From UHGV virus genome UHGV-1558343: a stretch of DNA of 30,962 nucleotides; one strand, written 5' to 3'. This document shows positions 7,428 through 27,888 of the stretch, one piece after another. The DNA is from a virus. Made by a program: the position numbers and the translations under genes. Numbering within the stretch: the stretch's first letter is position 1; each line of letters begins with the position of its first letter. The notes under the pieces were generated by a model. It saw only the letters and a program-made list of their open reading frames with translations, searched no databases and was not told the DNA's origin.

Positions 7428-7503
7428 TGGAGAATCCGAAGGGACTCGAACCCTTATAAACCTGTTTTGCAGACAGGTACATATCCATTTCTGTCACGGA
7501 TTC
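7428..7503 (-). tRNA. tRNA-Cys(GCA)
   Basis: cloverleaf folded by hand; T-loop TTCGAGT, anticodon loop CUGCAAA, 7-bp acceptor stem, CCA encoded. Confidence 0.8.
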
Positions 7504-7507
7504 AAAT

Positions 7508-7600
7508 TGGAGGAAGATACCAGACTTGAACTGGTACACCGATTTCTCAGCTACTGGCAGTTTAGCAAACTGCTCCCTTACCTTTTAGGGTTAATCTTCC
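7508..7600 (-). tRNA. tRNA-Ser(GCU), class II
   Basis: 93 nt; perfect 7-bp acceptor stem GGAAGAT/ATCTTCC; anticodon loop UUGCUAA; long variable arm; CCA encoded. Confidence 0.8.
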
Positions 7601-7601
7601 A

Positions 7602-8336
7602 TTATTTCTGTAATGCGCTCTTCATTTCTGGTGTTGCAATAGTGTCAATCACACCAGTTTTACAAGCATCATCAAACCAGTCTGGTAAGATACCTGCTAA
7701 GAACCCATTGATATTCGTTTTAAGGTACTCTGCAATAAGGGCAGCTTCTTCTTCAATCATCTGCACAACTTCATCTGCATAAGCTGTAATCTTCGAAATA
7801 CCTTCATTAATCTTACTAACAGCTTGGTTAGCTAAATCAGAAATAGTATCAAGACCTTTGTCAATAGCATCTTGTAAGTCACTTAATACATCATTAACAC
7901 CATCTAGTGCGCTGTTAATCGTATCCATAGCTTTTTGACCATACTCTGTAGCAACACCCATAATACCACTAAATGGTGTACAGCCAACTTGCTCCCCTGC
8001 TGCACCCATAACATTAGAATAGCCTTTTGCTACCTGCATACGTGAGGAAAACTCATCAATGGACTTTTGACCATAATCTGTCAGTGTCTTAGTAGTTGAT
8101 GTAGTGCTTGTCAGACTCGTTGTAAAGCTGTTAAGCAGAACTGTTGTAAGTCCAGCAGCAACAAGTTTATCTTTTATTGTAGGGTCTGTTACAGAACTAA
8201 TAGAGCTTACAAGTGATGTAGAGGCAGATACGGTTCCACCGAGAACTGCTGCACCAGTAATAAGTGGGTTAGAAAACCCTTTACCGGTTTTTAAGAGATT
8301 AAAAATCTCCTTACCTTGTTCTGTCATCTCTTTCAT
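7602..8336 (-). CDS. hypothetical Ser/Thr-rich protein embedded in tRNA array
   Basis: ORF 7602..8399 in track; first about 20 codons overlap tRNA-Phe on the same strand, so an internal Met start is likelier; exact start uncertain. Confidence 0.45.
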   Translation of the reverse strand: MKEMTEQGKEIFNLLKTGKGFSNPLITGAAVLGGTVSASTSLVSSISSVTDPTIKDKLVAAGLTTVLLNSFTTSLTSTTSTTKTLTDYGQKSIDEFSSRMQVAKGYSNVMGAAGEQVGCTPFSGIMGVATEYGQKAMDTINSALDGVNDVLSDLQDAIDKGLDTISDLANQAVSKINEGISKITAYADEVVQMIEEEAALIAEYLKTNINGFLAGILPDWFDDACKTGVIDTIATPEMKSALQK

Positions 8337-8352
8337 TAAGCACCTTTGAAAT

Positions 8353-8429
8353 TGGTAGTCCAGTGGGATTTGAACCCTCTTCTCATGTTTTTCAGACACG
8401 CGCTTTAACCATATAAGCTACTTGGACTA
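8353..8429 (-). tRNA. tRNA-Phe(GAA)
   Basis: T-loop TTCAAAT, anticodon loop CUGAAAA; acceptor pairing TAGTCCA/TGGACTA; exact 3' end ambiguous. Confidence 0.7.
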
Positions 8430-8434
8430 TAAAT

Positions 8435-8510
8435 TGGGGTGACCTACGGGATTTGAACCCGTATAGACCATGTTCACAGCATGGGTCATTACCGTTTATG
8501 ATAAGGCCAC
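8435..8510 (-). tRNA. tRNA-His(GUG)
   Basis: anticodon stem CCATG/CATGG, loop CUGUGAA; T-loop TTCAAAT; CCA encoded. Confidence 0.8.
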
Positions 8511-8541
8511 ATTTAAGGACTCTCGTAAGAACCCTTAGAAG

Positions 8542-8617
8542 TGGCAGCGGCATAAGGATTTGAACCTTAATAGGACAGCTTCAGAGACTGTTGCATTGCC
8601 AGTTATGCTATACCGCT
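8542..8617 (-). tRNA. tRNA-Gln(CUG)
   Basis: D-stem GCAT/ATGC, anticodon loop CUCUGAA, T-loop TTCAAAT, CCA encoded. Confidence 0.7.
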
Positions 8618-8622
8618 AAATT

Positions 8623-8701
8623 TGGTACTCCATATCGGATTCGAACCGATACATAACACAGATTTTAAGTCTGGCCTCTCTGCCAATTGGAGTAATGGAG
8701 C
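8623..8701 (-). tRNA. tRNA with anticodon UAA (Leu-type anticodon; short variable arm)
   Basis: T-arm ATCGG/TTCGAAT/CCGAT; anticodon loop CUUAAAA; acceptor GCTCCAT/ATGGAGT; A73; no long variable arm. Confidence 0.6.
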
Positions 8702-8703
8702 AT

Positions 8704-8779
8704 TGGCGGGGGATGTTGGAATTGAACCAACTTCTTCGATTTCAAAGACCGAGGTTTTAACCTTGTAAACTAATCCCCT
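8704..8779 (-). tRNA. tRNA-Gln(UUG)
   Basis: anticodon stem TCGGT/ATCGA, loop CUUUGAA; T-loop TTCAATT; CCA encoded; 1:72 mismatch. Confidence 0.65.
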
Positions 8780-8787
8780 TTAAATCT

Positions 8788-9345
8788 TTACTTTCTCAGT
8801 GGATGAATAAAGAATGCCAACATAACTCTTTCCCTTGAGAATGCTCTTTCTTCTGGGACAACACTTTTAAGTTTCCATCCAACATAAATTCTCCAGTAAA
8901 ACTGTTTACCAAAGACTTTAATTGATGGGATAAAAGCGAATAACCCCCAAGCATTACTGTTCCACATTAGGAGATAACCAGTCTGATTATCTTCAGGGTT
9001 AGAGCTTACGTTGATATTACCTTTCCACTTAGTAACATCTTTTACATCTCTTCCTAATACATGGTAAGAGAAGTTATAAGCTTTGTTTCTCCAGAGCCAT
9101 CCAACTCTCTGCATGTAGACACCCAGCTTACCAATCTTTCTAATCTTAGCCCATCTTTTAACGTGGCCTTCATCACCATCAATTGGGTTGTCATAGGTCT
9201 CCATCCATCTGAATCCAAAAGGTAGATGTCCTTTCTTCTCACTGTAGAATGGAACTACGAAAGGTGCTAAGATAACTGCTAGGGTTGCTGCAAATGGTTC
9301 TAACAAAGCTAAGAAAATCCATGAAACATATTTTAAGTATCTCAT
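8788..9345 (-). CDS. hypothetical protein with N-terminal hydrophobic segment, embedded in tRNA array
   Basis: 185 aa ORF with ATG and AAGAGG SD; N-terminus WIFLALLEPFAATLAVILAPFVVPF is hydrophobic; Trp-rich. Confidence 0.5.
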   Translation of the reverse strand: MRYLKYVSWIFLALLEPFAATLAVILAPFVVPFYSEKKGHLPFGFRWMETYDNPIDGDEGHVKRWAKIRKIGKLGVYMQRVGWLWRNKAYNFSYHVLGRDVKDVTKWKGNINVSSNPEDNQTGYLLMWNSNAWGLFAFIPSIKVFGKQFYWRIYVGWKLKSVVPEERAFSRERVMLAFFIHPLRK

Positions 9346-9365
9346 CTAAATAGCCTCTTAAAAAA

Positions 9366-9441
9366 TTGGTGCAGGATAAGGGATTCGAACCCCTATTAAC
9401 AGCTTCGTAGACTGTTGCTCTATCCATTTGAACTAATCCTG
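9366..9441 (-). tRNA. tRNA-Arg(ACG)
   Basis: acceptor GCAGGAT/ATCCTGC; anticodon loop CUACGAA; T-loop TTCGAAT; CCA encoded. Confidence 0.8.
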
Positions 9442-9540
9442 CTTACCTACGAGAACACCATACAGTTTTTCACAAACTTTGTTTTTACGTCTGTTTAGAT
9501 ATGAAGCTCTAAACTTTTTTGCGATGGACTTATTACTCAT
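9432..9540 (-). CDS. possible small basic protein (35 aa)
   Basis: ATG at 9538-9540 with AGGAG SD; translates MSNKSIAKKFRASYLNRRKNKVCEKLYGVLVGKQD; 3' end overlaps tRNA-Arg by about 10 nt. Confidence 0.3.
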
Positions 9541-9556
9541 AGTGCTCTCCTAAAAT

Positions 9557-9634
9557 TGGTGTTCCAAGACGGATTCGAACCGTCACTAATACAAGGTTTG
9601 AGCTTGCATCCTCTGCCAATTGGGATACTGGAAC
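9557..9634 (-). tRNA. tRNA with anticodon CAA (Leu-type anticodon; short variable arm)
   Basis: acceptor GTTCCAG/TTGGAAC; anticodon stem GCAAG/CTTGT, loop CUCAAAC; T-loop TTCGAAT; A73; CCA encoded. Confidence 0.6.
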
Positions 9635-9635
9635 A

Positions 9636-9710
9636 TGGTACTCACTAAAGGACTTGAACCTTTTTCTTCATCTTGTAAGGGTGATGTTTTACCATATAAA
9701 CTAAGCGAGT
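9636..9710 (-). tRNA. tRNA-Val(UAC), tentative
   Basis: acceptor ACTCGCT/AGTGAGT; anticodon loop CUUACAA with one C-A mismatch in the stem; T-loop TTCAAGT. Confidence 0.6.
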
Positions 9711-9805
9711 GTGAAAGAGGTCTGAAGTTGTGCCGCTAACTCAACTCCGTGGAATTTGTTACGGTCTTCAGTTGACACCAGCGGTCTTTCACTTGACCTC
9801 TGAAT

Positions 9806-9882
9806 TGGTGCTGCTCACAGGACTCGAACCTGCATTTCCATCCTTACAAGGGATGTGTAATAGCCAATTATACGAAAGCAGC
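9806..9882 (-). tRNA. tRNA-Thr(UGU)
   Basis: anticodon stem CATCC/GGATG perfect, loop CUUGUAA; T-loop TTCGAGT; CCA encoded. Confidence 0.8.
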
Positions 9883-9888
9883 ATTATT

Positions 9889-9963
9889 TGGAACATCCAG
9901 AGGGAATCGAACCCTCAACCTCAGTTTGGAAGACTGTAATTTTCCCGTTTAAACTATGGATGC
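9889..9963 (-). tRNA. tRNA-Gly(UCC)
   Basis: anticodon loop CUUCCAA; T-arm GAGGG/TTCGATT/CCCTC; CCA encoded. Confidence 0.75.
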
Positions 9964-9969
9964 ACTAAT

Positions 9970-10045
9970 TGGTGGAGAAGCAGGGAATTGAACCCTGTAC
10001 TTAAGTTTGCAAAACTTATGTTTTAACCATGTAAACTACATCCCC
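9970..10045 (-). tRNA. tRNA-Ala(UGC)
   Basis: D-stem GTTT/AAAC; anticodon stem TAAGT/ACTTA, loop UUUGCAA; T-loop TTCAATT; CCA encoded. Confidence 0.75.
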
Positions 10046-10051
10046 AATGTT

Positions 10052-10127
10052 TGGTACAGGTGGAGGGAATTGAACCCGTCGTCTTACTGATTAAGAGTCA
10101 GCCGCATAACCATTTTGCTACACCTGC
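10052..10127 (-). tRNA. tRNA-Lys(CUU), tentative
   Basis: anticodon stem GCTGA/TCAGT (one GU), loop CUCUUAA; T-loop TTCAATT; CCA encoded. Confidence 0.6.
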
Positions 10128-10134
10128 ATTAATT

Positions 10135-10212
10135 TGGTAGGAGACAAGGGATTCGAACCCTCAAACATCTCGTTCTAAGCGAGATAGGTTTACCAATTAC
10201 CGTCAATCTCCC
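10135..10212 (-). tRNA. tRNA with anticodon UAG (Leu-type anticodon; short variable arm)
   Basis: anticodon stem TCTCG/CGAGA perfect, loop CUUAGAA; T-loop TTCGAAT; A73; CCA encoded; variable region only 5 nt. Confidence 0.6.
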
Positions 10213-10293
10213 ATTAAATCTTTTTAGAGAACTTCTAAGAACCTAAGCAACAAGGTTCCACAACAAGCTGTAATAACCTTAGAAGCCCTCTAA

Positions 10294-10313
10294 AAAGACC
10301 TAAAAAGGTCTTT
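10294..10313. other. AT-rich hairpin inside a 258-nt tRNA-free spacer
   Basis: AAAGACC-TAAAAA-GGTCTTT palindrome; spacer 10213-10470 has no T-loop motif but several other inverted repeats. Confidence 0.4.
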
Positions 10314-10470
10314 GCATAGTCTTGTTTAATCCGGTGACTAGAACCTTTGGAGAGCTTGATACTATCTCTTCTCCGTGACACCTACTAGGTGCTTTATAGT
10401 CGTGCCGTGTACGCCAATACACGAGTAAAAACCGAGCTTGTTAGACGAGCGCGGGAATTAAATCTTATTA

Positions 10471-10560
10471 GGCGGTAAGTAAAGGAGTCGAACCCTCACC
10501 GTATCTCTACAGTGGCAACTGTTTTCAAGACAGTTTGGCTACCATTAGCCGCTACCTACC
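10471..10560 (-). tRNA. tRNA-Ser(UGA), class II
   Basis: 90 nt; anticodon stem ACTGT/ACAGT, loop CUUGAAA; long variable arm; acceptor GGTAGGT/ACTTACC. Confidence 0.75.
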
Positions 10561-10573
10561 CCTAATAAGACTT

Positions 10574-10656
10574 TGGCATGGGACGGAGGAGTTGAACCCC
10601 TTTGAAACGGTGTTGGAAGCCGTTGCTCATGCCTTAGAGTCTTAACATCGTCCCAT
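10574..10656 (-). tRNA. tRNA-Trp(CCA) with enlarged D region
   Basis: perfect acceptor ATGGGAC/GTCCCAT; anticodon loop UUCCAAC; T-loop TTCAACT; about 27 nt between anticodon stem and acceptor where about 20 are expected. Confidence 0.6.
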
Positions 10657-10799
10657 ACTATAATTCGAAGCTTACTGTATTATCTCAACACTGTAAAGCC
10701 CCTTCTCAGATTATTTACATGTTCTGGAAAACATGAGATACAGACCACCTCCCTACAGGAAGACCCGCTAAGGTCGTCTAAGTAATCTGCTAACTAAAT

Positions 10800-10881
10800 T
10801 GGTCGAGGCGGCAGGACTCGAACCCGCATACTCCACTTACTCGGTTAACGGCTGTTTAGAAGACAGCTGAGATACGCCCCG
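10800..10881 (-). tRNA. atypical tRNA-like gene, anticodon UCU (Arg-type); no recognisable D-arm
   Basis: T-arm GCGGG/TTCGAGT/CCTGC; acceptor CGGGGCG/CGCCTCG; anticodon arm GCTGT-CUUCUAA-ACAGC; only 7 nt between acceptor and anticodon stem; 23 nt between anticodon stem and T-stem. Confidence 0.5.
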
Positions 10882-11128
10882 TAATTATCTTTAAAGACTC
10901 TCTTAGAAAGCCCTTAAAGATGCCCACCTTATTAATCATACCGTGGGCTAGTACGCCAAATTCTTTGATGAGGGATTGGAAGACCTCACTGGTGTTTAGC
11001 CTATCAAGCTACTGCCAGAAAAACATTGTCGTTTGCATTTATTTTAAATTTGCAAAATAGACGCTACGCAACGAAAACTAAGGTTACTATAAAGTAGTCA
11101 CATCTCAATGTCAACAACTTTTTGAAAT

Positions 11129-11204
11129 TGGTACTGTGAGAAGGATTTGAACCTTCTGCCTTTCGGTTATCAGCCGAATGCACATCCATATGTGCTTTCA
11201 CAGC
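11129..11204 (-). tRNA. tRNA-Ile(GAU)
   Basis: anticodon stem TTCGG/CCGAA perfect, loop CUGAUAA; T-loop TTCAAAT; CCA encoded. Confidence 0.8.
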
Positions 11205-11683
11205 ATTGTTACCCCTTCGTGTACTTCTCTGTGGCAATTTGCACAAAGCAAGACACACTTATCAACTTCAGACTGCATTGTAGCCAGTGAGTAGTGTTTT
11301 TTACTTACTGTGAAGTCTTTTGTCTTAGGGTCTAAGTGGTGAAACTCTAGAGCCTTTGTGCACCTATTGTAACCACAAATTGAACAACAACCACCCTTGT
11401 AATCAACTAAAGCCTTCTTCAGTCTGTCACGAGACTTTTTAACGTGCAGTGATTTGGCTTTGCTTTTTTCATGATGGGTCTTATGTTTTTTCATGACTCC
11501 ACCTGCAATACATTCGTCACAGTATTTTCTCGCTTTTGGCGTTACCTTTCCGCATGAATGGCAAGAGCCTTCCTGACTTCTCTTTGGGTGTTTCTTGTTG
11601 TTCACTTTTGCAGAACAAGAGCGTGAGCAAAATTTTCCACCTTTAACGGCTTCATTTCCGCAACCTTTGTTAGCACAAATCAT
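11198..11683 (-). CDS. HNH homing endonuclease
   Basis: multiple CxxC pairs plus FHHLDP and CANCHREVH motifs near C-terminus; ATG at 11681-11683 with AGGTGA SD; lies between tRNA genes. Confidence 0.85.
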   Translation of the reverse strand: MICANKGCGNEAVKGGKFCSRSCSAKVNNKKHPKRSQEGSCHSCGKVTPKARKYCDECIAGGVMKKHKTHHEKSKAKSLHVKKSRDRLKKALVDYKGGCCSICGYNRCTKALEFHHLDPKTKDFTVSKKHYSLATMQSEVDKCVLLCANCHREVHEGVTML

Positions 11684-11700
11684 AAGTATCACCTATAAAT

Positions 11701-11777
11701 TGGAGGTTCAGATGGGAATCGAACCCACATTCATAGGGCTTATGAGACCCTTGCATTACCTTATCTGCGACTGAACC
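11701..11777 (-). tRNA. tRNA-Met(CAU) (elongator Met, fMet or Ile-lysidine not distinguishable)
   Basis: acceptor GGTTCAG/CTGAACC perfect; anticodon loop CUCAUAA; T-loop TTCGATT; CCA encoded. Confidence 0.75.
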
Positions 11778-11781
11778 ATAT

Positions 11782-11857
11782 TGGTAGAAGTGGAGGGATT
11801 CGAACCCATCGCCTGTCAGATTAAAAGTCTGCCGCATCACCATTCTGCTACACTTCC
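11782..11857 (-). tRNA. tRNA-Lys(UUU)
   Basis: anticodon loop CUUUUAA; T-arm ATGGG/TTCGAAT/CCCTC; CCA encoded. Confidence 0.7.
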
Positions 11858-11863
11858 ATTAAA

Positions 11864-12001
11864 TTATCTTTGTAGATAAGCTACCCAGACTTGCTTAAGG
11901 TCTGTAGCGATGTGTCTTTTCGGGTTAAATCTAGAATCTACCCTTCCACCTTTGTGGTCGCATACTCACAGGTAAGCTTAATAACTTATCTACAAAGATA
12001 A
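11864..12001. repeat. perfect 17-bp inverted repeat flanking about 100 nt of hairpin-rich spacer
   Basis: TTATCTTTGTAGATAAG at 11864-11880 and its exact reverse complement CTTATCTACAAAGATAA at 11985-12001; each arm is itself palindromic. Confidence 0.7.
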
Positions 12002-12052
12002 TTACCAGACCGTTGTTTATCATCTTAAGTGCTACCATTACACCAACTCGAC

Positions 12053-12101
12053 ATCTGCCGAGTGAAGGAATCGAACCTTCGCCTTTTCTTTACCGGAGAA
12101 A
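12053..12101 (-). pseudogene. tRNA 3' fragment (T-arm plus anticodon arm, anticodon GGU Thr-type); 5' half missing
   Basis: T-arm GAAGG/TTCGATT/CCTTC and anticodon arm TTTCT-CCGGUAA-AGAAA present; no sequence downstream pairs with acceptor 3' strand ACTCGGC; no CCA. Confidence 0.45.
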
Positions 12102-12116
12102 TAGATTGTTTAAGTT

Positions 12117-12143
12117 TTGCTGTAAACGGTCTTCTGTAAATTT
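12117..12143. repeat. tRNA-spacer repeat copy 1 (TTGCTGTAAACGGTCTTCTGTAAATTT)
   Basis: 27-bp element identical to copy at 13048-13074; sits where the 5' half of the tRNA fragment would be. Confidence 0.75.
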
Positions 12144-12202
12144 GTTGAGCCAGACCAAGTTTTAAATTTTTCAAAATTAAATTGGCTTGAAATTTTAAGT
12201 AA

Positions 12203-12227
12203 CTTGCTGTATTTGGTCTTCTGCTCC
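12203..12227. repeat. tRNA-spacer repeat, degenerate copy
   Basis: CTTGCTGTATTTGGTCTTCTGCTCC shares the TTGCTGTA..GGTCTTCTG core. Confidence 0.55.
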
Positions 12228-12284
12228 TTTAAAGGATACTCGTAAGAACCCTTTAATGGAGGGGCTAAATAGCCCTCTCAAAAT

Positions 12285-12360
12285 TGGCGAGGTATGCGAG
12301 AATCGAACTCGCGGCTCAGGAGAGACAATCCCGTATTTTACCCGTCTAAACTAATACCCC
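12285..12360 (-). tRNA. tRNA-Asp(GUC)
   Basis: anticodon loop UUGUCUC; T-arm GCGAG/TTCGATT/CTCGC; acceptor GGGGTAT/ATACCTC; CCA encoded. Confidence 0.7.
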
Positions 12361-12364
12361 AAAT

Positions 12365-12793
12365 TCATGTACCATTTCTTAGATACTTCTTCCTACGTCT
12401 TTCTGGACTATAGTTTCTTCTACTCTCAGCATTCTTAGCCAGCCTACACTCATCGCATCTACAGCCTTTAAAATAGCTATACGCAGTTCCGTGTTTAATT
12501 GTTTTATGTTTTCTTTCACTTATCTGTGCTGGTCTTGCTGCTTTCATGTTACATTTAAGATGACTATAAGAAATATTATCTAGTGAAAAGAAAAGCTCTT
12601 TTGCATTCTCACTATGTCTCCACGGAATCTTATGCTCGATAGAGAAATCATCCCTAGTCATTTCTTTTCCGCACTGAAAACATCTATTTTGATTTGTCTT
12701 ACATATAAAATCGAATAGCAAATCTTTTACTAGTCTGTTTTGTGCAGTTCCCAAACTCATACCAAGTTGTGATTTGTATACTTCATCTCTCAT
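12365..12793 (-). CDS. HNH homing endonuclease
   Basis: CFQCG ... EHKIPW ... HLKCN motif set; C-terminal Cys/Arg-rich segment GCRCDECR; ORF track start overlaps tRNA-Tyr so internal ATG at 12791-12793 is proposed. Confidence 0.8.
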   Translation of the reverse strand: MRDEVYKSQLGMSLGTAQNRLVKDLLFDFICKTNQNRCFQCGKEMTRDDFSIEHKIPWRHSENAKELFFSLDNISYSHLKCNMKAARPAQISERKHKTIKHGTAYSYFKGCRCDECRLAKNAESRRNYSPERRRKKYLRNGT

Positions 12794-12815
12794 AACTAAG
12801 TATCTCGCTAAGTGT

Positions 12816-12903
12816 TGGTGTGCCGTGTAGGAGTCGAACCTACCGAGTCTCAATGACAAGGGATTTACAGTCCCCACCGCTACCATCTACGGGATAACGA
12901 CAC
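12816..12903 (-). tRNA. tRNA-Tyr(GUA), class II
   Basis: 88 nt; anticodon loop CUGUAAA; long variable region; acceptor GTGTCGT/ACGGCAC; CCA encoded. Confidence 0.75.
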
Positions 12904-12915
12904 ATTTCAATTTTG

Positions 12916-12989
12916 CGGTTAGTCAGGGATTCGAACCCTGTGCCATTCGCTTAACAGGCGACCGCACATACCTTATGTGCTTCCTAACC
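12916..12989 (-). tRNA. tRNA-Asn(GUU)
   Basis: D-arm GCAC-9nt-GTGC; anticodon loop CUGUUAA; T-loop TTCGAAT; CCA not encoded. Confidence 0.75.
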
Positions 12990-13047
12990 ATGTTTAGTAT
13001 TACCAGACCGTATCTTTCAATTTTTTCCGCTAAAAATTTAATAAATA

Positions 13048-13074
13048 TTGCTGTAAACGGTCTTCTGTAAATTT
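13048..13074. repeat. tRNA-spacer repeat copy 2 (TTGCTGTAAACGGTCTTCTGTAAATTT)
   Basis: exact 27-bp duplicate of 12117-12143; abuts the 3' end of the tRNA at 13074. Confidence 0.75.
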
Positions 13075-13150
13075 GGAGGCGGGTGCAGGAGTCGAACCTG
13101 CCGATACCATGCTAATGAGACATGTGAGACGCCCTTTCTCTATACCCGCA
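13074..13150 (-). tRNA. tRNA with anticodon CAU (Met or Ile-lysidine), tentative
   Basis: anticodon loop CUCAUUA; D-arm GAGA-7nt-TCTC; acceptor with 1:72 mismatch; CCA encoded. Confidence 0.6.
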
Positions 13151-13213
13151 ATTCTTAATGACCAGACCAAATCTCTTCTTTGTCCGATTTACCTTCAGAT
13201 GAATAAGATTAAG

Positions 13214-13240
13214 TTTGCTGTAATTGGTCTTCTGTCAAAA
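13214..13240. repeat. tRNA-spacer repeat, degenerate copy
   Basis: TTTGCTGTAATTGGTCTTCTGTCAAAA directly beside the 3' end of tRNA-Glu. Confidence 0.6.
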
Positions 13241-13241
13241 C

Positions 13242-13319
13242 TGGCGTTCCAGAAGGGATTTGAACCCTCAGATATCCACTTTGAAAGAGTGGTGACTATA
13301 CCATTTTGTCTACTGGAAC
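13242..13319 (-). tRNA. tRNA-Glu(UUC)
   Basis: perfect acceptor GTTCCAG/CTGGAAC; anticodon stem CCACT/AGTGG perfect, loop CUUUCAA; CCA encoded. Confidence 0.8.
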
Positions 13320-13326
13320 ATTAATT

Positions 13327-13403
13327 TGGTCTCTGTTGGAGGACTTGAACCTCCGGCCTTACCGCCCCAAACGGAACGCTCTACCAAGCTGAGCTAAACA
13401 GAG
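13327..13403 (-). tRNA. tRNA-Pro(UGG)
   Basis: classic D-arm GCTCAGCTTGGTAGAGC; anticodon loop UUUGGGG; T-loop TTCAAGT; perfect acceptor; CCA encoded. Confidence 0.8.
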
Positions 13404-15849: not shown

Positions 15850-16064
15850 AAATCGCAGATATTATAGATTTATATCAAACTGCAAAGAGTCATGGCTATA
15901 TAACCTCAATTGGAAAGAATAGTCACTATGATGCTTTGACTGGAATGTATTTCAGGGCAATGGCTCAATCTAGTGAACAACACTTAATGGTTTCTTCCAG
16001 TGAGTTTACTTCGTTTCTCTATTGCAGCAAAATTATAAATCGCAGGAGAACTGAAAAATGTTAA
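15831..16064 (+). CDS. hypothetical protein
   Basis: 77 aa ORF, AGAGGA SD; overlaps next gene start. Confidence 0.5.
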   Translation: MCSSQLEIADIIDLYQTAKSHGYITSIGKNSHYDALTGMYFRAMAQSSEQHLMVSSSEFTSFLYCSKIINRRRTEKC

Positions 16065-16648
16065 CAGTAAGTTTTAATTACAATAGTGATGGCTCTGTAT
16101 CAATTAACTCACCATATGCAAATGACCTATTGAAAGAATTAGTTAATCAGTGTGATAGAGGTCTTCACTATGTCCCAAATTCTTTTAAACAGAAGACTAT
16201 TGCTAATAACTTGATGCGTGTAACAGTAACGGCATCGAATCCAAATTATGACTTTGATAGTGAAAGTCCGTACTCATTAGTTGCGCTTGGAGAGAGCAGC
16301 CAATTCAAACTTGTTTGCCACGACTCAGAAATATTTCTTAAGGTATTTTCCAACCTTACCCATAATAATAAGTACAGCTACGTTGATGGTAGTGTAAACT
16401 TCTATCCAGCAAACTATACATGTTTGTTGGTTGATAATATGAGAAAAAGTAAGCAAGAGCCTACAGAAATTTCATTTGATGTGAACTCTAGTCCAGATGC
16501 AGAAACAAGTAAGAACTTTGATATGAGTTACGCATTGTCACTCAGTAAGAAATCCGAGTTCATTGATTATGTCAATGGATTTGGTTTTAAGTTTGATGAG
16601 AGTATGAATCTTAAAAAACTTAAGAACCTACTTAAGACCAAAGCTTAA
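16058..16648 (+). CDS. hypothetical protein
   Basis: 196 aa ORF with AGGAGA SD. Confidence 0.6.
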   Translation: MLTVSFNYNSDGSVSINSPYANDLLKELVNQCDRGLHYVPNSFKQKTIANNLMRVTVTASNPNYDFDSESPYSLVALGESSQFKLVCHDSEIFLKVFSNLTHNNKYSYVDGSVNFYPANYTCLLVDNMRKSKQEPTEISFDVNSSPDAETSKNFDMSYALSLSKKSEFIDYVNGFGFKFDESMNLKKLKNLLKTKA

Positions 16649-16695
16649 GTGTGAATAGGGGCTGATGCCCCTTTAACTATTTATAAGGATATTTA

Positions 16696-17067
16696 ATGAA
16701 GGCTAAGAGTGCAAAAGACTTTTATTGCTTCCTACAATCCTATATCAATTCCGTGCAAAATGGTGAAAGGTACAACCTTAATGATGTTATCCCAACACCT
16801 TTGACATGGAGACTCAGTAAATGGCCTGAAGAAGATATTACACCAACAAGCGAACAACGCACCTACAAACCTGAAATCAATATTCCAGATTCTGAGAATC
16901 TATTATATCCAATGTTCCGTATTGTTGGTCTTGGAAGATTCCTTATGGATATCCAGTATGTAATCGGTAAAGGTTATAAGGTTAAAGGTATTGTTGTTGG
17001 TGATGTATCTCCGCATCACAAAGGTTATTTTAGACTAAACGCACATTTAGAGGCTAAAAAGAAATGA
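16696..17067 (+). CDS. hypothetical protein, paralog of the N-terminal domain of the next gene
   Basis: 123 aa; shares an alignable domain with 17064..17696 (KAK..DF..F...I..V..G.RY ... LLY ... F.MD.QY.I..G). Confidence 0.6.
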   Translation: MKAKSAKDFYCFLQSYINSVQNGERYNLNDVIPTPLTWRLSKWPEEDITPTSEQRTYKPEINIPDSENLLYPMFRIVGLGRFLMDIQYVIGKGYKVKGIVVGDVSPHHKGYFRLNAHLEAKKK

Positions 17068-17696
17068 TTAAAGCAAAGACTTACCCAGACTTCAAAGAGT
17101 TTGTGAAGGGCTTCATTGCAAATGTAAAGGCTGGTAAGAGATATGATTTTAGAACATATCAAGAGGCTATTTTACCACTTACCTATAGTTCATATTGGCC
17201 TGAAGCTGATATTGCAGAAGTTGAGAAGTTTGACTACAAACCAGACTATAAAGTCCCATTTAGTAATGAGTTGCTTTACAGTGTTGGTGCACAGATGAGA
17301 ACTGCTGATTTCTTCATGGATTTGCAGTATGCAATTATCAATGGTAAAGACGTTGATACAGTTTATTGTGAATGGTTGGCAAGAGTTAAGCCCTTCTCAA
17401 TGCTGAATGCTAAGCTGAAGGATGCTATCAAGCCACCATCAATCACTCAGCAACCAACCAATCAAACAGTCAATGAGGGTGGCACACTTACTCTAAGCAT
17501 TCTAGCAACTAACGCCACTGGATATCAGTGGAAAAAGGATGGTGAGGACATCCCTAGTGCCAATTCTGCAACTTACACAAAACAGTCAGTAGCACCTTCT
17601 GACGCTGGTTCATACACTTGTGTTGTAACAGGTGCAGGTGGCTCTGTAACATCTAATGCAGCAACAGTTACAGTTAACCCAGTAGGAGGGGTATAA
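17064..17696 (+). CDS. hypothetical protein with C-terminal Ig-like domain
   Basis: 210 aa; C-terminal segment PSITQQPTNQTVNEGGTLTLS ... GYQWKKDGEDI ... DAGSYTCVV ... TVTVNP matches Ig-like strand pattern; overlaps flanking genes. Confidence 0.65.
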   Translation: MIKAKTYPDFKEFVKGFIANVKAGKRYDFRTYQEAILPLTYSSYWPEADIAEVEKFDYKPDYKVPFSNELLYSVGAQMRTADFFMDLQYAIINGKDVDTVYCEWLARVKPFSMLNAKLKDAIKPPSITQQPTNQTVNEGGTLTLSILATNATGYQWKKDGEDIPSANSATYTKQSVAPSDAGSYTCVVTGAGGSVTSNAATVTVNPVGGV

Positions 17697-18160
17697 TGCA
17701 ACTCTCAAGAAAAGGTTTAGAAGCTATTAAGTTCTTTGAAGGTCTTAAGCTGGAGGCTTACGAAGATTCTGCTGGAATCCCCACAATTGGGTATGGGACT
17801 ATCCGTATTGCTGGTAAACCTGTTAAGATGGGTATGAAAATTACTGCTGAACAAGCTGAACAGTATCTTCTTGCAGATGTTGAAAAGTTCGTTGCAGCAG
17901 TTAACAAAGCCATCAAGGTTCCAACTTCTCAGAATGAGTTTGATGCACTTGTAAGTGAAACATACAACATTGGTATCACGGCTATGCAGGACTCTACATT
18001 TATCAAGCGCCACAACGATGGTAATAAGGTAGGTTGTGCAGAAGCTATGCAGTGGTGGAACAAGGTTACAGTCAAAGGTAAGAAGGTCACTTCAAACGGA
18101 CTGAAAAACAGACGTAGAATGGAAGCTGACATTTATCTTGACAGTGTATATCCAAAGTAA
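17696..18160 (+). CDS. lysozyme / endolysin (T4 lysozyme-like, GH24)
   Basis: 154 aa; N-terminal EGLKLEAYEDSAGIPTIGYGT matches the T4-lysozyme catalytic Glu/Asp/Thr region; AGGAGG SD. Confidence 0.85.
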   Translation: MQLSRKGLEAIKFFEGLKLEAYEDSAGIPTIGYGTIRIAGKPVKMGMKITAEQAEQYLLADVEKFVAAVNKAIKVPTSQNEFDALVSETYNIGITAMQDSTFIKRHNDGNKVGCAEAMQWWNKVTVKGKKVTSNGLKNRRRMEADIYLDSVYPK

Positions 18161-18169
18161 TATCTTCAT

Positions 18170-18196
18170 AGGCTCCTTCGGGAGCCTTTTTATTTT
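18170..18196 (+). terminator. rho-independent terminator after lysozyme gene
   Basis: AGGCTCC-TTCG-GGAGCCT stem-loop followed by TTTTTATTTT. Confidence 0.85.
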
Positions 18197-18210
18197 CTAA
18201 GGAGAAAACT

Positions 18211-18609
18211 ATGAAACTTTGGGCTAGTGACTTTGGAACTTTTAAGTACACTCGTAATGGTTCTCTTGTACGCATTGTTGGAAGCAATGTAGTTTCAAGA
18301 GGTGACAAGGTGTATACACGGTTTACTGTAGAACTTGTTAAACTCTCACCTATTGAATCTGCTAACAACGGCCTGTTCAAGTTTGAGACTTACCATGTAA
18401 ATGAACACGGGCAGTTTAACACTTTAGGTGAAAGTGGCCTTGATATTATTTCAGAACACCCATTGACAAGAGAGCAGCTTGCGAGTTACTATAAAACAGT
18501 TCTTGAAAGAACTTTGGCAATACATGAGAATGAGGCCAGATATCACATAGAACGCTGTGAAGTTTTAAGAGCAAAAATCGAACAAGCAGAGAGAGGTTTT
18601 TATGAATAA
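18211..18609 (+). CDS. hypothetical protein
   Basis: 132 aa ORF, AAGGAGA SD. Confidence 0.55.
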   Translation: MKLWASDFGTFKYTRNGSLVRIVGSNVVSRGDKVYTRFTVELVKLSPIESANNGLFKFETYHVNEHGQFNTLGESGLDIISEHPLTREQLASYYKTVLERTLAIHENEARYHIERCEVLRAKIEQAERGFYE

Positions 18610-18988
18610 GATTCAAGTAAAAGTTGATGTCAGTCGTTACAGCGAAAATGAAGAATTAGACCTGAAAGATGCTCTTCTCTTTGAGAAGAATGGTAATCTC
18701 CATTTGCATTTTGAAGGTACAAACACATATCTCCACAGATGTCGAGATGATGCAGATGGTTGCCCTGTTTTTGCTTGGTATAATTTAGAGTTCCCTCTTT
18801 ATGCCATCCACTACCCAGATGGTGGTGAAGACTGGACAACTCAATCAATCTTTGATGAGCTTAATGGCATTCCAGTTGAGCAAGAAGAGCAAGAGCCTGT
18901 TGAACTCACCTTCACTTTTATCAAAGAAGAGAAAGTGGGTGATTTGTCAGTAACTGAAGCAATTCAAGTCTCACAGGTTATTCGTTAA
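18602..18988 (+). CDS. hypothetical protein
   Basis: 128 aa ORF overlapping upstream gene end. Confidence 0.55.
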   Translation: MNKIQVKVDVSRYSENEELDLKDALLFEKNGNLHLHFEGTNTYLHRCRDDADGCPVFAWYNLEFPLYAIHYPDGGEDWTTQSIFDELNGIPVEQEEQEPVELTFTFIKEEKVGDLSVTEAIQVSQVIR

Positions 18989-20817: not shown

Positions 20818-21032
20818 AAAAGTTAACTACAGTTGAAGATTACTACAAACTATCCCTGTTAGAGCAGTATCGTAGGAGCCAGAATATCAGAAAATGCTAT
20901 GGTAAACACGCTGAAGGTGACTTTTACCGTTGTTACGATGCAGATTTAAAAGGTGTGACACCTAGAGGGAAAGTCCTGCAAAGACTTGTTGACCTTGAGT
21001 GGAACAAACGATTGAGAGGGGTTGGAAAATGA
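20814..21032 (+). CDS. hypothetical protein
   Basis: 72 aa ORF, ATGA overlap with upstream gene. Confidence 0.5.
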   Translation: MKKLTTVEDYYKLSLLEQYRRSQNIRKCYGKHAEGDFYRCYDADLKGVTPRGKVLQRLVDLEWNKRLRGVGK

Positions 21033-21532
21033 TTTACGAAGAAAGATATAAGATAGATTTTCAGGATACTTGCCATCATACTTCTTTAAGAGTAACCAAA
21101 CCAAATGGAGATACCGGTATCATAGCACATTTTGGTGGTGATTATTGGTACGGTACAGGTTGCTTTGAAGGCTACAATCAAGAATACTTGAAAGCCTTCT
21201 ACAGAGACTTTGCAAACGACTACAACAGGGTTGTTGATGAAAAGAACAAGTGCATTAAGCATGAACACCATGCCAGAGGCTGCCTAAGTATTGTTATGGT
21301 ACTGGCGTTCTTCTTAGTAATGTTACTGGCAGTATCAGCAATCAGTTGTATAGCTCAAGACTTGACCATTACACAGATTACTGCAAAGGTACATGATATC
21401 TGGTACTTGTATACTGTTCCTTTAGCTGGTATCATCATCTCACTAATGAGATTCAGAGTTCATAAGAAACGACTTAAGGATTCTGAGGTTAAACTTGAAG
21501 AGGTAAGTAAAGAATGCAACCTACAATTATAG
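21029..21532 (+). CDS. hypothetical membrane protein
   Basis: hydrophobic segments LSIVMVLAFFLVMLLAVSAISCIA and WYLYTVPLAGIIISLM; ATG at 21029 overlaps upstream stop (ATGA), preferred over track start 20999. Confidence 0.5.
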   Translation: MIYEERYKIDFQDTCHHTSLRVTKPNGDTGIIAHFGGDYWYGTGCFEGYNQEYLKAFYRDFANDYNRVVDEKNKCIKHEHHARGCLSIVMVLAFFLVMLLAVSAISCIAQDLTITQITAKVHDIWYLYTVPLAGIIISLMRFRVHKKRLKDSEVKLEEVSKECNLQL

Positions 21533-22682: not shown

Positions 22683-22692
22683 AATATCTTAA

Positions 22693-22721
22693 GAGCCTCC
22701 TTAATTGGGGGGCTTTTTATT
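22693..22721 (+). terminator. rho-independent terminator ending the plus-strand operon
   Basis: GAGCCTCC ... GGGGGGCT stem followed by TTTTTATT. Confidence 0.7.
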
Positions 22722-23354
22722 GAGTAAAATTTACGAAATTTATATTTTTTTATAAAATTTTATCGGTTGTCCCAACCTCTGGGTCACCATCATATGTGAA
22801 CAAAATATCTATCCTTCTTAACAACCTTCTTAATCTTACTCTCTATATATAGTTATATAGTACTATATAGTATCTTAGTAACTATCTAGTGGTCTTAATA
22901 GCCCCTCTGTATAACCCTTCTAACTAGCCCTCTAACAAGCCTTCTAAACACTCTTCTAACAAGCCTTCTTAACAACCTATACAATCACCTTAACCATCCC
23001 TCTACACCCTCTTAGAAGCTCCTATACATCTCTTAATCTCTAGGTTACCTATGATACCCTCTATAGGTGTTCACTAGGTATTACTAAACCTCTATATAGA
23101 CTGTTTTAACAAACTTAACAGGGATATCTTTACAGACCTTATTTCACAAGGTCTAACACGGTACTAACAAGGTATCTTATAAGCCTGTTTCTACCTGTAT
23201 TTTTAAAAGACTGTATAGGTAATTATTCAGAATCTTAAAATTTTTATAAAATAGGACTATCAAGTCATTTTTTAGGGTCTTTGAAGGAACTGAAAAATAT
23301 CTGTCTAGTTGATTCGGTAGAATCTACCTCATGATGTATATCTGCTTGGTAGCC

Positions 23355-23632
23355 CTTAACAGCCCCTTAACACCCCCTTTGCAAAATTTTAAAATATCCT
23401 TAACAATCTCTTAACAGTTCTCACATCTTCTTAACAACTCTTCAAAGGTCTTAACAGATTCTTAACAGAACTAACAAGGCTGTAACAGTTTCTTAACAGT
23501 TGATACATAGTCTTTACAGATGCTTAACAGATGACTAACAAGAGCTAACAAGTTAATTTTTAAGAGTTATTTTGTTAAGATAATTAACAAGTTTCTAACA
23601 AGTGTTTAATCTTTTTAACAAGCTATTAACAT
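23355..23632. repeat. periodic array of at least 17 degenerate TCTTAACAG / CTAACAAG units spaced 10-11 bp
   Basis: runs such as tcttaacagat tcttaacagaa ctaacaaggc tgtaacagtt tcttaacagt; spacing equals one helical turn. Confidence 0.8.
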
Positions 23633-23882
23633 GGTCACTACTTCTTTCTTATCGTTCCCTTTCCTTTCTTAATTGGTATTGTTATGAGGATGCTTCATCC
23701 GAATCATCTACCAATCCCTAGTGATTCTCTAAATAGCCCTCTTAAAAGCTCTCTATAGCTCTTTATAGTCTCTTTTAAGCCTCTTCCTAGTATCTACCCC
23801 CAACTGTACAGATAGCTCTTTATAGGGCTTTACAGGAGCTTTTAAGGCTATGTCAAAGGTTCTTACAAGGCTTTTACGTGGT

Positions 23883-23990
23883 CTTAACAGAGGTTTAACA
23901 AGGGGCTAACAAGTTGCTAACAAGTGCCTTAAAAGCATAACTGTGTAGGGTTTGTTAAGAAATTGTTAAGAAAATGTTAAGGGGGCTAGA
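23883..23990. repeat. second TTAACA(A/G) cluster with inverted-orientation copies
   Basis: cttaacagaggtttaacaaggggctaacaagttgctaacaag followed by gttaagaaattgttaagaaaatgttaag (reverse orientation). Confidence 0.7.
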
Positions 23991-24360
23991 ATTTACGTAA
24001 CTTTTAAGCTACTTTTACGTAACTTTGAAGTAACTTTATAGCCCCTATAACATGCTTTTTAGTGACTAGCAAGGGGGTTGTTTAACCATTCACAAGATAC
24101 TAACCAGCCTATAAGCTTACACCCTTATAAGATTCTTTTAAGTCTCTATAAAGCCCTGTAAAGAGCTTTTTAAGATAGGTTAATGCAATCCCTTAAGTTA
24201 GGTTGATAAGGCTGTTATAGAGCGTTATAGAGCGTTTTAGGGGTTGCCCTTCCCTTTCGGGTTATGGGCTTATATTTAAGTTGATTTGATAAGAGGTTAT
24301 AGAGTAAGCTATAGAGTTATTGCTCTAAATGTCTGGTAAGAGCCTAGAAAGGGATTGTAT

Positions 24361-24390
24361 AGACGTTAAAAAGCCCCATTGAAGGGGCTT
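24361..24390 (-). terminator. hairpin followed by short U-run downstream of the last small minus-strand gene
   Basis: AAGCCCC-ATTGAA-GGGGCTT stem-loop; minus-strand transcript continues TTTAACG. Confidence 0.5.
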
Positions 24391-24443
24391 GTATAGGTTC
24401 TGGGGCTATTTGCCCGTTGCGGCGTCTTGTTAATCAAATAACT

Positions 24444-27467: not shown

Positions 27468-27559
27468 TTTTGAATCTCCAGTTTAGGACTTTATTTAGTG
27501 GGGAAGGTCATTCCCTCCCCGTTGATGTGTAATTTAGCCTATCTAAAAATCAGTGTCAA
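27468..27559 (-). promoter_or_regulatory. type A promoter/stem-loop/RBS cassette
   Basis: minus strand: TTGACA -35 (27554-27559, overlapping upstream stop codon), 17 bp, TAAATT -10, hairpin GGGGAGGGAATGACCTTCCCC, GGAG SD. Confidence 0.75.
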
Positions 27560-27888
27560 ACACTTTGTTTTCGTTTGCTCAACTCTTGAACAATTACAGC
27601 GTAGTAGTCTTTTAAGTCACTGATATTCAAGGCATTTATCAGTGAATTATAACCATCGACTAACTGAAAATCATCTTTGAAGATGTCACTTATCTGATAG
27701 GTTTTCGCTTTATATCTGAAGCTCATTTCTAGCCGCTTTATTTGCTCATCACTTAGGCGTCCTAGAAAGCTCTCTACCAAGTTATTGTTAACCTGCTGTG
27801 TGATTGCCTTATTTGCTAGATTATAGGCCTTATACGCCTTATAAAGTGCTATAATGGCAATGATTGCAGTGATACCCATCATTAACAT
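27556..27888 (-). CDS. hypothetical protein with N-terminal transmembrane segment
   Basis: 110 aa; MLMMGITAIIAIIALYKAY hydrophobic N-terminus; AGAGG SD; start overlaps upstream gene end. Confidence 0.55.
   Translation of the reverse strand: MLMMGITAIIAIIALYKAYKAYNLANKAITQQVNNNLVESFLGRLSDEQIKRLEMSFRYKAKTYQISDIFKDDFQLVDGYNSLINALNISDLKDYYAVIVQELSKRKQSV

Follow-up and report, generated by a model that had tools for sequence, protein, structure and literature searches.

The 210-aa protein encoded at 17064..17696 is identified by homology as Hex-Dec, the Hoc-like hexamer decoration protein of Felix O1-like phages, which is already known and whose structure has been solved. Taken together, the findings are very probably best explained by a Felix O1-like phage with a Hex-Dec gene, an ordinary endolysin gene tied to it by synteny only, and an anchor-only paralog of Hex-Dec, for which a capsid-directed accessory role is a tentative proposal. 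The window (the whole stretch of DNA analysed, 30,962 nucleotides) comes from a Felix O1-like myophage: it belongs to Felixounavirus and shares 93-96% nucleotide identity with Felix O1 and EC106.

The three close-packed + strand ORFs of the original prediction are all present (123, 210 and 154 aa; Table 1). They are joined by a 4-nt overlap (ATGA) between the paralog and Hex-Dec genes and, as had been described, a 1-nt overlap (TAATG) between the Hex-Dec stop and the lysozyme start. The paralog has a Shine-Dalgarno sequence, AAGGA, at 16685-16689. The terminator predicted after the lysozyme gene was also found: its stem of 7 bp (18170-18187, 5 GC pairs) is followed by TTTTTATTTT, and Table 2 for Felix O1 has a terminator entry, t35, at the corresponding strand. 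Upstream of the unit lies a GC-rich hairpin (AGGGGC-TGAT-GCCCCT) that mio and Z31 also keep; it may act as a weak terminator or stabilise RNA, and the terminator scan missed it because its T-run is short. A sigma-70 promoter scan scored more sites in shuffled controls than in the actual sequence, with none convincing upstream of 16696, and the ORF38-like gene upstream had no Pfam or NCBIfam match.

Table 1. Features of the three-gene unit and its upstream flank in the window
Feature	Position	Strand	Basis
GC-rich hairpin between the ORF38-like gene and the paralog	16657..16672	+	read from sequence
CapBD-only paralog of Hex-Dec, 123 aa (Felix O1 ORF37; phrog_4463, "unknown function")	16696..17067	+	
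Hex-Dec capsid-binding domain (CapBD), aa 1-120, including Arg79 and Arg107	17064..17423	+	homology to 9NCF_S, 9C2D_S
Hex-Dec single I-set Ig-like display domain, short C-terminal tail and stop	17433..17696	+	Pfam
Soluble GH24 endolysin (Felix O1 p13/ORF35)	17696..18160	+	Pfam, phrog_7, PDB 7M5I
Intrinsic terminator ending the three-gene unit	18170..18197	+	terminator scan

Hex-Dec and its Ig-like domain

The identification rests on orthologues with solved structures. Hex-Dec aligns from residue 1 with chain S of PDB 9NCF (E=7e-224) and of 9C2D (E=1.3e-152), and its N-terminal domain matches only these capsid chains. The former is Hex-Dec of the Escherichia phage Bas63 (JohannRWettstein), with a CapBD about 97% identical to that of the window; the latter is gp20 of Shigella phage Sf14 (9C2D/9C3A chain S), and the Sf14-type CapBD is about 89% identical. 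The gene slot, between a CapBD-only paralog and the endolysin, is the same in these phages, as are Arg79 and Arg107 (Sf14 gp20 numbering; QMR79TAD and LAR107VKP in the window). In cryo-EM of the Bas63 and Sf14 proteins, a CapBD monomer plugs the centres of the edge (pentamer-proximal) hexamers of a T=9 head, with the Ig-like repeats pointing outward (PMC12609058, PMC11821841), and the two arginines anchor the protein through salt bridges to Asp221 of the major capsid protein (PMC11821841). By analogy, Hex-Dec of the window would occupy the same edge-hexamer centres. The Felix O1 protein, Gp36, has been detected in virions by mass spectrometry (MS), and the CapBD is under strong constraint (dN/dS ~0.03).

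The C-terminal Ig-like domain that had been predicted lies at aa 124-204, where three Pfam models match above their gathering scores (Ig_3, 1.2e-12; Ig_2, 2e-09; I-set, 1.9e-08). The accompanying expectation that such domains sit on virion surface proteins fits capsid decoration, given the cryo-EM homologues and the presence of Gp36 in Felix O1 virions. The database label, a (major) tail protein ("HK97 major tail subunit", "tail protein"), is almost certainly wrong. It draws on GenBank and PHROG labels and on PHROG matches to major tail protein families, but those matches are confined to the Ig region (phrog_158, aa 127-205; phrog_853, 96-205; phrog_3575, 119-204), while the N-terminal domain matches capsid chain S only and the 210-aa protein lacks the N-terminal tail-tube domain of HK97 gpV-like major tail proteins. 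The Bas63 authors explicitly call the tail annotation wrong (PMC12609058).

Hex-Dec resembles T4 Hoc in being a hexamer-centre monomer with an outward string of Ig-like domains and non-essential roles in adhesion or aggregation, as argued in both structural papers, but its capsid-binding domain is N-terminal where that of Hoc is C-terminal, and is unrelated in sequence and distinct in topology (PMC12609058, PMC11821841). Following the analogy drawn by those authors, the Ig domain would mediate weak adhesion or aggregation, a non-essential step (PMC12609058, PMC11821841). Matches to Hoc-like PHROGs (3.5e-14) cover the Ig region only (aa 128-207), and Hex-Dec is not a member of the Hoc family. 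Its Ig domain is also homologous (aa 131-207) to those of the decoration proteins 5LXK (E=2e-13) and 8ZVI (E=4e-13), which we take to be T5 pb10; the capsid-binding domain of pb10 has no similarity to CapBD, and T5 is not known to have an anchor-only paralog. Homologous CapBDs (about 32-36% identity) occur in gp38 of Erwinia phage phiEa21-4 (a "conserved structural protein") and in its counterpart in Hafnia phage SarahDanielle; both are encoded at the same place ahead of the endolysin gene and have a Big_2 display domain (2e-21) in place of I-set.

The number of Ig-like domains varies among these proteins: four in Bas63, three in Sf14, two in Felix O1 and one, the minimum, in the window. Sliding identity against the repeats of ASO1A, Felix O1 and Bas63 showed that the single domain of the window is a chimera, with about 180 nt at the 5' end from repeat 1 and about 70 nt at the 3' end from the last repeat, and a crossover near 17616-17636. 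Unequal recombination involving these two repeats probably gave rise to the domain. The one-Ig alleles of EC6 and mistaenkt have crossover points that differ from that of the window. Recurrent unequal recombination would therefore explain the polymorphism of one to four repeats, one-Ig alleles having apparently been produced at three independent crossover points. This account is a modest addition of the present analysis.

The endolysin gene and its link to Hex-Dec

The third gene is assigned by sequence to an ordinary cytoplasmic GH24 endolysin. It matches Phage_lysozyme (PF00959, 1.6e-40) and phrog_7 (endolysin), is near-identical over 154 aa to 7M5I (GH24, E=9.5e-97), a protein of T4-lysozyme fold from which it shows no notable difference, and contains the catalytic motif E15-x8-D24-x5-T30. 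A hydropathy scan found no transmembrane (TM), SAR or other hydrophobic segment, so the enzyme is probably of the canonical soluble, holin-dependent type and would need a holin encoded elsewhere. That no holin is evident beside the lysozyme was borne out: no small TM ORF adjoins it, in agreement with the lack of a holin-lysin cassette in Felix O1 (Whichard et al., 2010). The wider search for holin-like proteins that had been suggested did turn up three TM proteins, the only ones in the window (8788..9345, 20999..21532 and 27556..27888), but none is adjacent to the lysin and all belong to PHROGs of unknown function. A "D-Ala-D-Ala carboxypeptidase" label on homologues of 18602..18988, which might have hinted at a lysis cluster, was set aside as it had no Pfam support. 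Nothing was found that contradicts the Hex-Dec or endolysin assignments.

It had been suggested that the Ig-like protein may assist lysis or bind the cell wall alongside the lysozyme, or that the lysozyme itself may be virion-associated. The stop/start overlap, the common terminator and an adjacency kept in all Ounavirinae examined speak for such a link, yet it is very unlikely and largely refuted. Cryo-EM places homologues whose CapBDs are 89-97% identical at the centres of capsid hexamers, and the Felix O1 virion proteome holds Gp36 and not the lysin (gp35), which is also absent from the VpaE1 proteome, to judge from the text of that paper, and from the 23 gene products of the Bas63 virion (a text in which "lysozyme" and "endolysin" never appear; PMC12609058). 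The catalytic domain of the endolysin is complete and stand-alone, and was crystallised alone (7M5I). Expression also differs: in Felix O1 RT-PCR the lysin peaks at 25 min, and ORF36 and ORF37 at 60 min. Nor is the overlap kept beyond Felixounavirus, except in one metagenomic relative: in Moogle- and Suspviruses 1-2 nt lie between the two genes, the Hafnia phage has a 49-nt spacer, and in phiEa21-4 an annotated terminator splits the gene pair. The last Hex-Dec codons (..VGG) also encode the lysin's AGGAGG Shine-Dalgarno sequence, and because this ribosome-binding site sits inside them the overlap appears to be mainly compaction. The order ORF38-like gene, Hex-Dec, lysin recurs in phiEa21-4, SarahDanielle, Moogle-, Susp- and Felixounaviruses and an 87-kb metagenomic contig; the adjacency is ancestral synteny across Ounavirinae and implies no shared function or functional fusion.

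The anchor-only paralog

The 123-aa protein and the N-terminus of Hex-Dec are significant paralogs, as had been claimed (BLASTP: 36% identity over 121 aa, E=3e-16); the similarity had been placed in the first 110 aa, an extent that falls short, since it reaches about aa 119-121. Reciprocal PHROG matches between the two families (phrog_3995 at 4e-15, phrog_4463 at 2.8e-16) and a match to 9NCF_S (E=9e-12) agree. The structure prediction that had been proposed was run with AF2, and the paralog is modelled with a CapBD fold (pLDDT 79, pTM 0.79): in the PDB the model matches only 9C2D_S and 9NCF_S (TM 0.72-0.77), the next match being at E=0.59. This fold needed Hex-Dec and distant CapBD sequences in the alignment; the model built from a paralog-only alignment was not usable (pLDDT 46). 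With its end at aa 123 the protein has no Ig-like display domain, nor any Pfam or NCBIfam match; of its 51 homologues (82-124 aa, 104-124 aa in 48 cases), none carries an Ig or other Pfam domain.

As a derived tandem duplicate, the paralog consists of the anchor domain only. It shares 33 core positions with Hex-Dec and has other residues fixed at 35 positions conserved in Hex-Dec; outgroups mostly, though not uniformly, carry the Hex-Dec states at the divergent positions. The anchoring arginines are replaced (Gly78 is invariant, and position 107 is His, Gln or Arg), and the protein is basic (pI 9.3, vs 6.3 for the Hex-Dec CapBD). The 45% identity in the comparison with P0093, as against 31% to a Hex-Dec encoded in the same genome as the ortholog, points to orthology. 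The start/stop overlap with Hex-Dec is always present, and the GAGG Shine-Dalgarno sequence before the Hex-Dec ATG is conserved. Word-indexed searches returned close relatives only, and an exhaustive HMMER scan of 1.84 billion representatives gave 12 clusters, and so no informative distant homologue; the domain contexts are limited to CapBD+Ig, CapBD+Big_2 and, once, a CapBD followed by a tail rich in Lys and Ser.

The paralog is expressed late, as the RT-PCR of Felix O1 ORF37 shows. The Felix O1 virion list lacks it (gp37) and so, as the paper's text implies, does that of VpaE1; it has no MS entry in the Sf14 supplement, and these proteins are missing from the wV8 proteome paper. The two structural papers, which describe Hex-Dec, never mention it and report no extra density at undecorated hexamers (PMC12609058, PMC11821841). 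The lack of virion peptides and of extra density, the replaced arginines, the pseudogene of mio and Z31, and the roughly 19 of 253 Felix-type records without the gene speak against a capsid role. Our tentative preference is for a non-virion or very low-copy late accessory that would still be directed to Hex-Dec or the capsid lattice while heads assemble, helpful but dispensable.

A functionless, decaying duplicate is improbable. The gene is indeed pseudogenised in a Felixounavirus subclade (mio and Z31, with the start codon lost and a deletion of ~220 bp), missing from those 19 or so records, and absent from the Erwinia and Hafnia relatives, but a median dN/dS of ~0.12 at dS ~1 indicates purifying selection, full-length copies keep to 122-124 aa with 68 invariant positions among homologues of 72-98% identity, and an ortholog (45% identity) occupies the same position on a deeply divergent metagenomic contig. 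Programmed -1 frameshifting at T-AAA-AAG before the paralog stop, giving a CapBD-CapBD-Ig fusion, is extremely unlikely: Hex-Dec does lie in the -1 frame, the A-rich run exists in Felixounavirus, and other phages sometimes add Ig domains in this way, yet neither Moogle (GCTAAGAAATG) nor Susp (GCTAATAAAAATG) nor the metagenomic lineage has the motif, Suspvirus shows a +1 frame relation, the conserved GAGG precedes the Hex-Dec ATG, and the solved chains begin at Hex-Dec Met1. The fusion was rejected since the motif is not conserved.

It is unlikely, too, that the paralog is a second, Ig-less decoration protein on the 20 facet-centre (true 3-fold) hexamers left unbound by Hex-Dec, or a competitor that sets the edge-only pattern. 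The modelled full CapBD fold, late co-expression with Hex-Dec and the conserved translational overlap would suit such a role, as would a basic charge facing the acidic, Asp-rich pore of the hexamer centre and changed interface residues that could fit a different Asp221 geometry at 3-fold hexamers (PMC11821841). Icosahedral averaging blurs any monomer placed on a 3-fold axis, and MS easily misses a 14-kDa protein present in 20 copies. Against this, the protein was undetected in the Felix O1 proteome (and, by implication, that of VpaE1), and a viable subclade (mio, Z31) has lost the gene. A wider version, in which the paralog is a third player in head decoration, an anchor without display that binds facet-centre hexamers or, transiently, procapsid hexamers and so limits Hex-Dec to the 60 edge hexamers, is doubtful; if true, phages without the paralog (the mio/Z31 clade, Erwinia phiEa21-4) would differ in Hex-Dec occupancy.

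Meaning for Felix O1-like phages

The main outcome is an annotation correction: in hundreds of Felix O1-like genomes the Hex-Dec gene goes under the label "tail protein" or "HK97 major tail subunit". Salmonella is typed with such phages, which also find use in biocontrol and therapy; for mucus adherence and antigen display, Hoc-like Ig proteins are candidates. The residual novelty lies in a conserved, selected, anchor-only paralog directly upstream of Hex-Dec that both structural papers passed over. Together with its natural knock-outs, this paralog offers a cheap genetic handle on the site-specific occupancy of a T=9 lattice by a decoration protein.

The Hex-Dec and endolysin neighbourhood

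The three consecutive genes form a real but ordinary locus, the published Hex-Dec/endolysin neighbourhood of Felix O1-like phages (Hex-Dec is their Hoc-like hexamer decoration protein). About 3.5 kb around them shares 93–96% identity with at least 229 Felix O1-like myophage genomes, among them EC106, Felix O1 and wV8-type phages, and the remainder of the window runs collinearly with Felix O1 from ORF9 through ORF58 (major capsid protein, portal, terminase, tRNA cluster). The Felix O1 counterparts are ORF37 (the paralog), gene 12/ORF36 "tail protein" (Hex-Dec) and the p13/ORF35 endolysin (the lysozyme). The original prediction of tandem paralogs, the second with an Ig-like C-terminus, holds: the first protein is 36% identical over 121 residues (E=3e-16) to the N-terminal ~120 aa of the second (the capsid-binding domain, CapBD), each matches the other's PHROG family at ~1e-15, and aa 124–204 of the second match Pfam Ig_3, Ig_2 and I-set above gathering scores. 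The third protein is a lysozyme as proposed (Pfam Phage_lysozyme, 1.6e-40). The ORFs meet at ATGA (first/second) and TAATG (second/third), the latter being the predicted overlap with the lysozyme ATG, and the terminator behind the lysozyme is also present. A Felix O1-type region at 93% identity also occurs in GU169904.1, "Staphylococcus phage SA1", presumably a chimeric or contaminated assembly.

Features of the window, with median NG86 dN/dS (nine phages, three genera, dS ~1)
Feature	Coordinates	Strand	Description	dN/dS
Paralog ORF	16696..17067	+	123 aa	0.12
Hex-Dec ORF	17064..17696	+	210 aa
Hex-Dec CapBD				0.03
Ig repeat 1				0.14
Ig-repeat crossover	near 17616-17636
Hex-Dec end with lysin Shine-Dalgarno	17670-17696
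Lysozyme ORF	17696..18160	+	154 aa	0.075
Terminator	18170-18197		hairpin + T-run, 7-bp GC-rich stem, after lysozyme ORF
ORF38-like gene	16058-16648		196 aa	0.095
Carboxypeptidase-labelled ORF	18602-18988		128 aa
Transmembrane gene	20999-21532
Transmembrane gene	8788-9345	-
Transmembrane gene	27556-27888	-
tRNA cluster	7428-13403	-	few ORFs interspersed
Gene-poor region	22683-24433		~1.75 kb
Inverted motif copies	23953-23981		three copies
GC skew sign change	near 23750-23900

The 210-aa protein matches, from residue 1, PDB 9NCF chain S ("Immunoglobulin-like domain protein" of phage Bas63, E=7e-224) and 9C2D/9C3A chain S (phage Sf14 gp20, E=1.3e-152); its "tail protein" PHROG matches are confined to the Ig region. 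The cryo-EM papers on Bas63 and Sf14 name this Hoc-like decoration protein Hex-Dec, anchor it through Arg79 and Arg107 to Asp221 of the major capsid protein, and describe one to four outward-projecting Ig-like domains too mobile to resolve (PMC12609058, PMC11821841). Both arginines are kept in the window's Hex-Dec, and Gp36 was detected in purified Felix O1 virions at 44% coverage (Felix O1 virion proteome). Such close homologues make the mechanism of both Hex-Dec and the lysin known.

Elsewhere in the window, ARAGORN predicts 25 tRNA genes, 23 confirmed by Rfam; Felix O1 is annotated with 22 (Felix O1 genome paper). The gene-poor region, where plus- and minus-strand gene blocks converge, has no ORF of at least 30 aa except one 39-aa GTG ORF, and the matching gap in Felix O1 is also unannotated. 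It is dense in the short motif CTTAACA / TCTAACAAG, with copies often phased by 11 or 31 nt. Of the 39 CTWAACA matches in the window, where 17 +/- 4.6 would be expected across all 31 kb, 18 fall in this region, a candidate for an iteron array, a replication origin or a protein-binding array.

Endolysin and the supposed lysis link

A crystallised endolysin, PDB 7M5I, is a near-identical match to the lysin (E=9.5e-97), which carries the catalytic motif E15-x8-D24-x5-T30; no hydrophobic N-terminus was found in it, and together these features identify a canonical soluble, holin-dependent GH24 endolysin. The observation that no holin lies beside it is correct and already published (Felix O1 literature). 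The window has only three real genes with predicted transmembrane segments, all in PHROGs of unknown function and none adjoining the endolysin: one is Felix O1 ORF27 "membrane protein" (1–2 transmembrane segments, charged C-terminus) and the other two have N-terminal anchors. Homologues of the 128-aa ORF are labelled "D-alanyl-D-alanine carboxypeptidase" in GenBank (mio, mistaenkt, warpig, ST11); its product has no Pfam match and its PHROG family, phrog_4348, is of unknown function, and the label looks like an annotation propagated without support.

The suggestion that the Ig-domain protein serves lysis is not supported: its homologues decorate capsids, the overlap with the lysin is not conserved, and expression peaks differ. 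The order ORF38-like gene, Hex-Dec, lysin is kept across the subfamily (Felixounavirus, Mooglevirus, Suspvirus, Erwinia phage phiEa21-4 of Kolesnikvirus, a Hafnia phage and an 87-kb metagenomic contig), and the last two genes are separated by a 1–2 nt gap in Moogle- and Suspviruses, an annotated terminator in phiEa21-4 and a 49-nt spacer in the Hafnia phage. By Felix O1 RT-PCR, ORF35 peaks at 25 min, and ORF36 and ORF37 at 60 min alongside portal, sheath and fibre genes. Our conclusion is that Hex-Dec and the lysin, two late-ish genes, are neighbours by inherited synteny, with no functional partnership. In most lineages examined, the lysin's own AGGAGG Shine-Dalgarno overlaps the ..VGG codons at the Hex-Dec C-terminus. 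Across the window and nine relatives' loci (L001, L002, L007–L013), the ..(V/A)GG end is mostly encoded by a (G)TAGGAGG or CAGGAGG lysin Shine-Dalgarno, so protein tail and ribosome-binding site constrain each other; the exceptions are Moogle (GGAGC) and the metagenomic L013 (CAGGAG, protein end ..QENE).

The ORF38-like gene (phrog_4034, unknown function; no Pfam or NCBIfam match) lies directly ahead of the Hex-Dec block in all Ounavirinae lineages examined, with or without the paralog. It is under purifying selection and is a conserved, unstudied partner of the Hex-Dec block.

Ig repeat number

Hex-Dec is 210, 294 or 460 aa long in the relatives' loci, 372 aa in the Sf14 chain and 377 aa in a cluster representative; both structure papers left the origin of this Ig copy-number variation open (PMC12609058, PMC11821841). 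The first ~180 nt of the window's single Ig repeat are 94–100% identical in DNA to repeat 1 of phage ASO1A, and the rest resembles the terminal repeat in ASO1A and Felix O1 (100% at nt 199–234, 89–92% in the final segment compared), with the crossover in the conserved GSYTCVV segment. Other one-repeat alleles cross over elsewhere, EC6 at ~nt 90–108 of the repeat and Suspvirus mistaenkt at or before the repeat start, and these differing points indicate recurrent unequal homologous recombination. In Erwinia phages, the same CapBD bears a Big_2 domain (2e-21) in place of the window's Ig: what is conserved is the anchor module, and display domains can be exchanged.

The CapBD-only paralog

The upstream paralog is the only part of the locus without coverage in the searchable literature: "paralog" and "duplication" do not occur in the Bas63 paper (PMC12609058), nor "paralog", "gp21" and "gp19" in the main text of the Sf14 paper (PMC11821841). 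All 51 homologues have 82–124 aa (48 of them 104–124 aa) and none has a Pfam domain. Searching 1.84 billion representatives exhaustively by HMMER with a joint profile yielded only 12 clusters; the CapBD family is essentially confined to Ounavirinae-like phages. An AF2 model of the paralog from the joint alignment (pLDDT 79, pTM 0.79; paralog sequences alone gave a poor model) retrieved only 9C2D_S and 9NCF_S in Foldseek (TM 0.72–0.77, probability 1.0; next PDB match E=0.59).

The two copies arose long ago and have escaped homogenisation: in a deeply divergent metagenomic phage with the same gene order (paralog, Hex-Dec, lysozyme), the paralog and CapBD are 45% and 58% identical to the window's but only 31% identical to each other. 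Only one copy is present in the Erwinia and Hafnia relatives. Single-copy outgroups mostly show the Hex-Dec state at family-distinguishing positions (Pro110 in five of five, Lys/Arg109; Arg at position 79 in two of five), which makes the paralog the derived copy. Both families conserve 33 positions in common; 35 more are conserved within each family and differ between them, clustering at aa 74–80 and 92–112, which span the Hex-Dec anchors. There the paralog replaces Arg79 with an invariant Gly78, and Arg107 by His, Gln or Arg; its pI is 9.3 (basic) versus 6.3 for CapBD. Every lineage shows an overlap of 1, 4 or 8 nt between the paralog's stop and the Hex-Dec ATG, with a conserved GAGG Shine-Dalgarno upstream of that ATG. 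Phages mio and Z31 carry a dead copy of the paralog gene (a common lost ATG and ~220-bp deletion), an intact copy is missing in ~19 of 253 Felix-type records, and mio retains an intact Hex-Dec.

Purified Felix O1 virions yielded neither the lysin gp35 nor gp37 (Felix O1 virion proteome), and the VpaE1 virion proteome adds only three proteins to the Felix O1 list (gp54, gp58, gp68), so both are inferred absent there too. Our tentative reading, which may well be wrong, is that the paralog is a late, beneficial but dispensable accessory, non-virion or at very low copy, whose CapBD fold would make contact, while heads assemble, with the capsid lattice or Hex-Dec. A role as second decoration protein, occupying the 20 facet-centre hexamers, is rather unlikely. 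A functionless relic is improbable, being contradicted by the paralog's dN/dS, and a frameshift fusion with Hex-Dec is scarcely credible because the slippery run is not conserved; the remaining probability goes to some unrelated function.

In Shigella phage Z31 (2498–3070 of the compared locus), Hex-Dec is annotated as two CDS of 405 and 168 nt, reflecting either an inactivating frameshift/nonsense mutation or a sequencing error; if real, the split would leave Z31 naturally null for both genes of the decoration pair. The residual value of the locus lies in the recombinational origin of Ig copy-number variation and in this unreported, anchor-only paralog.
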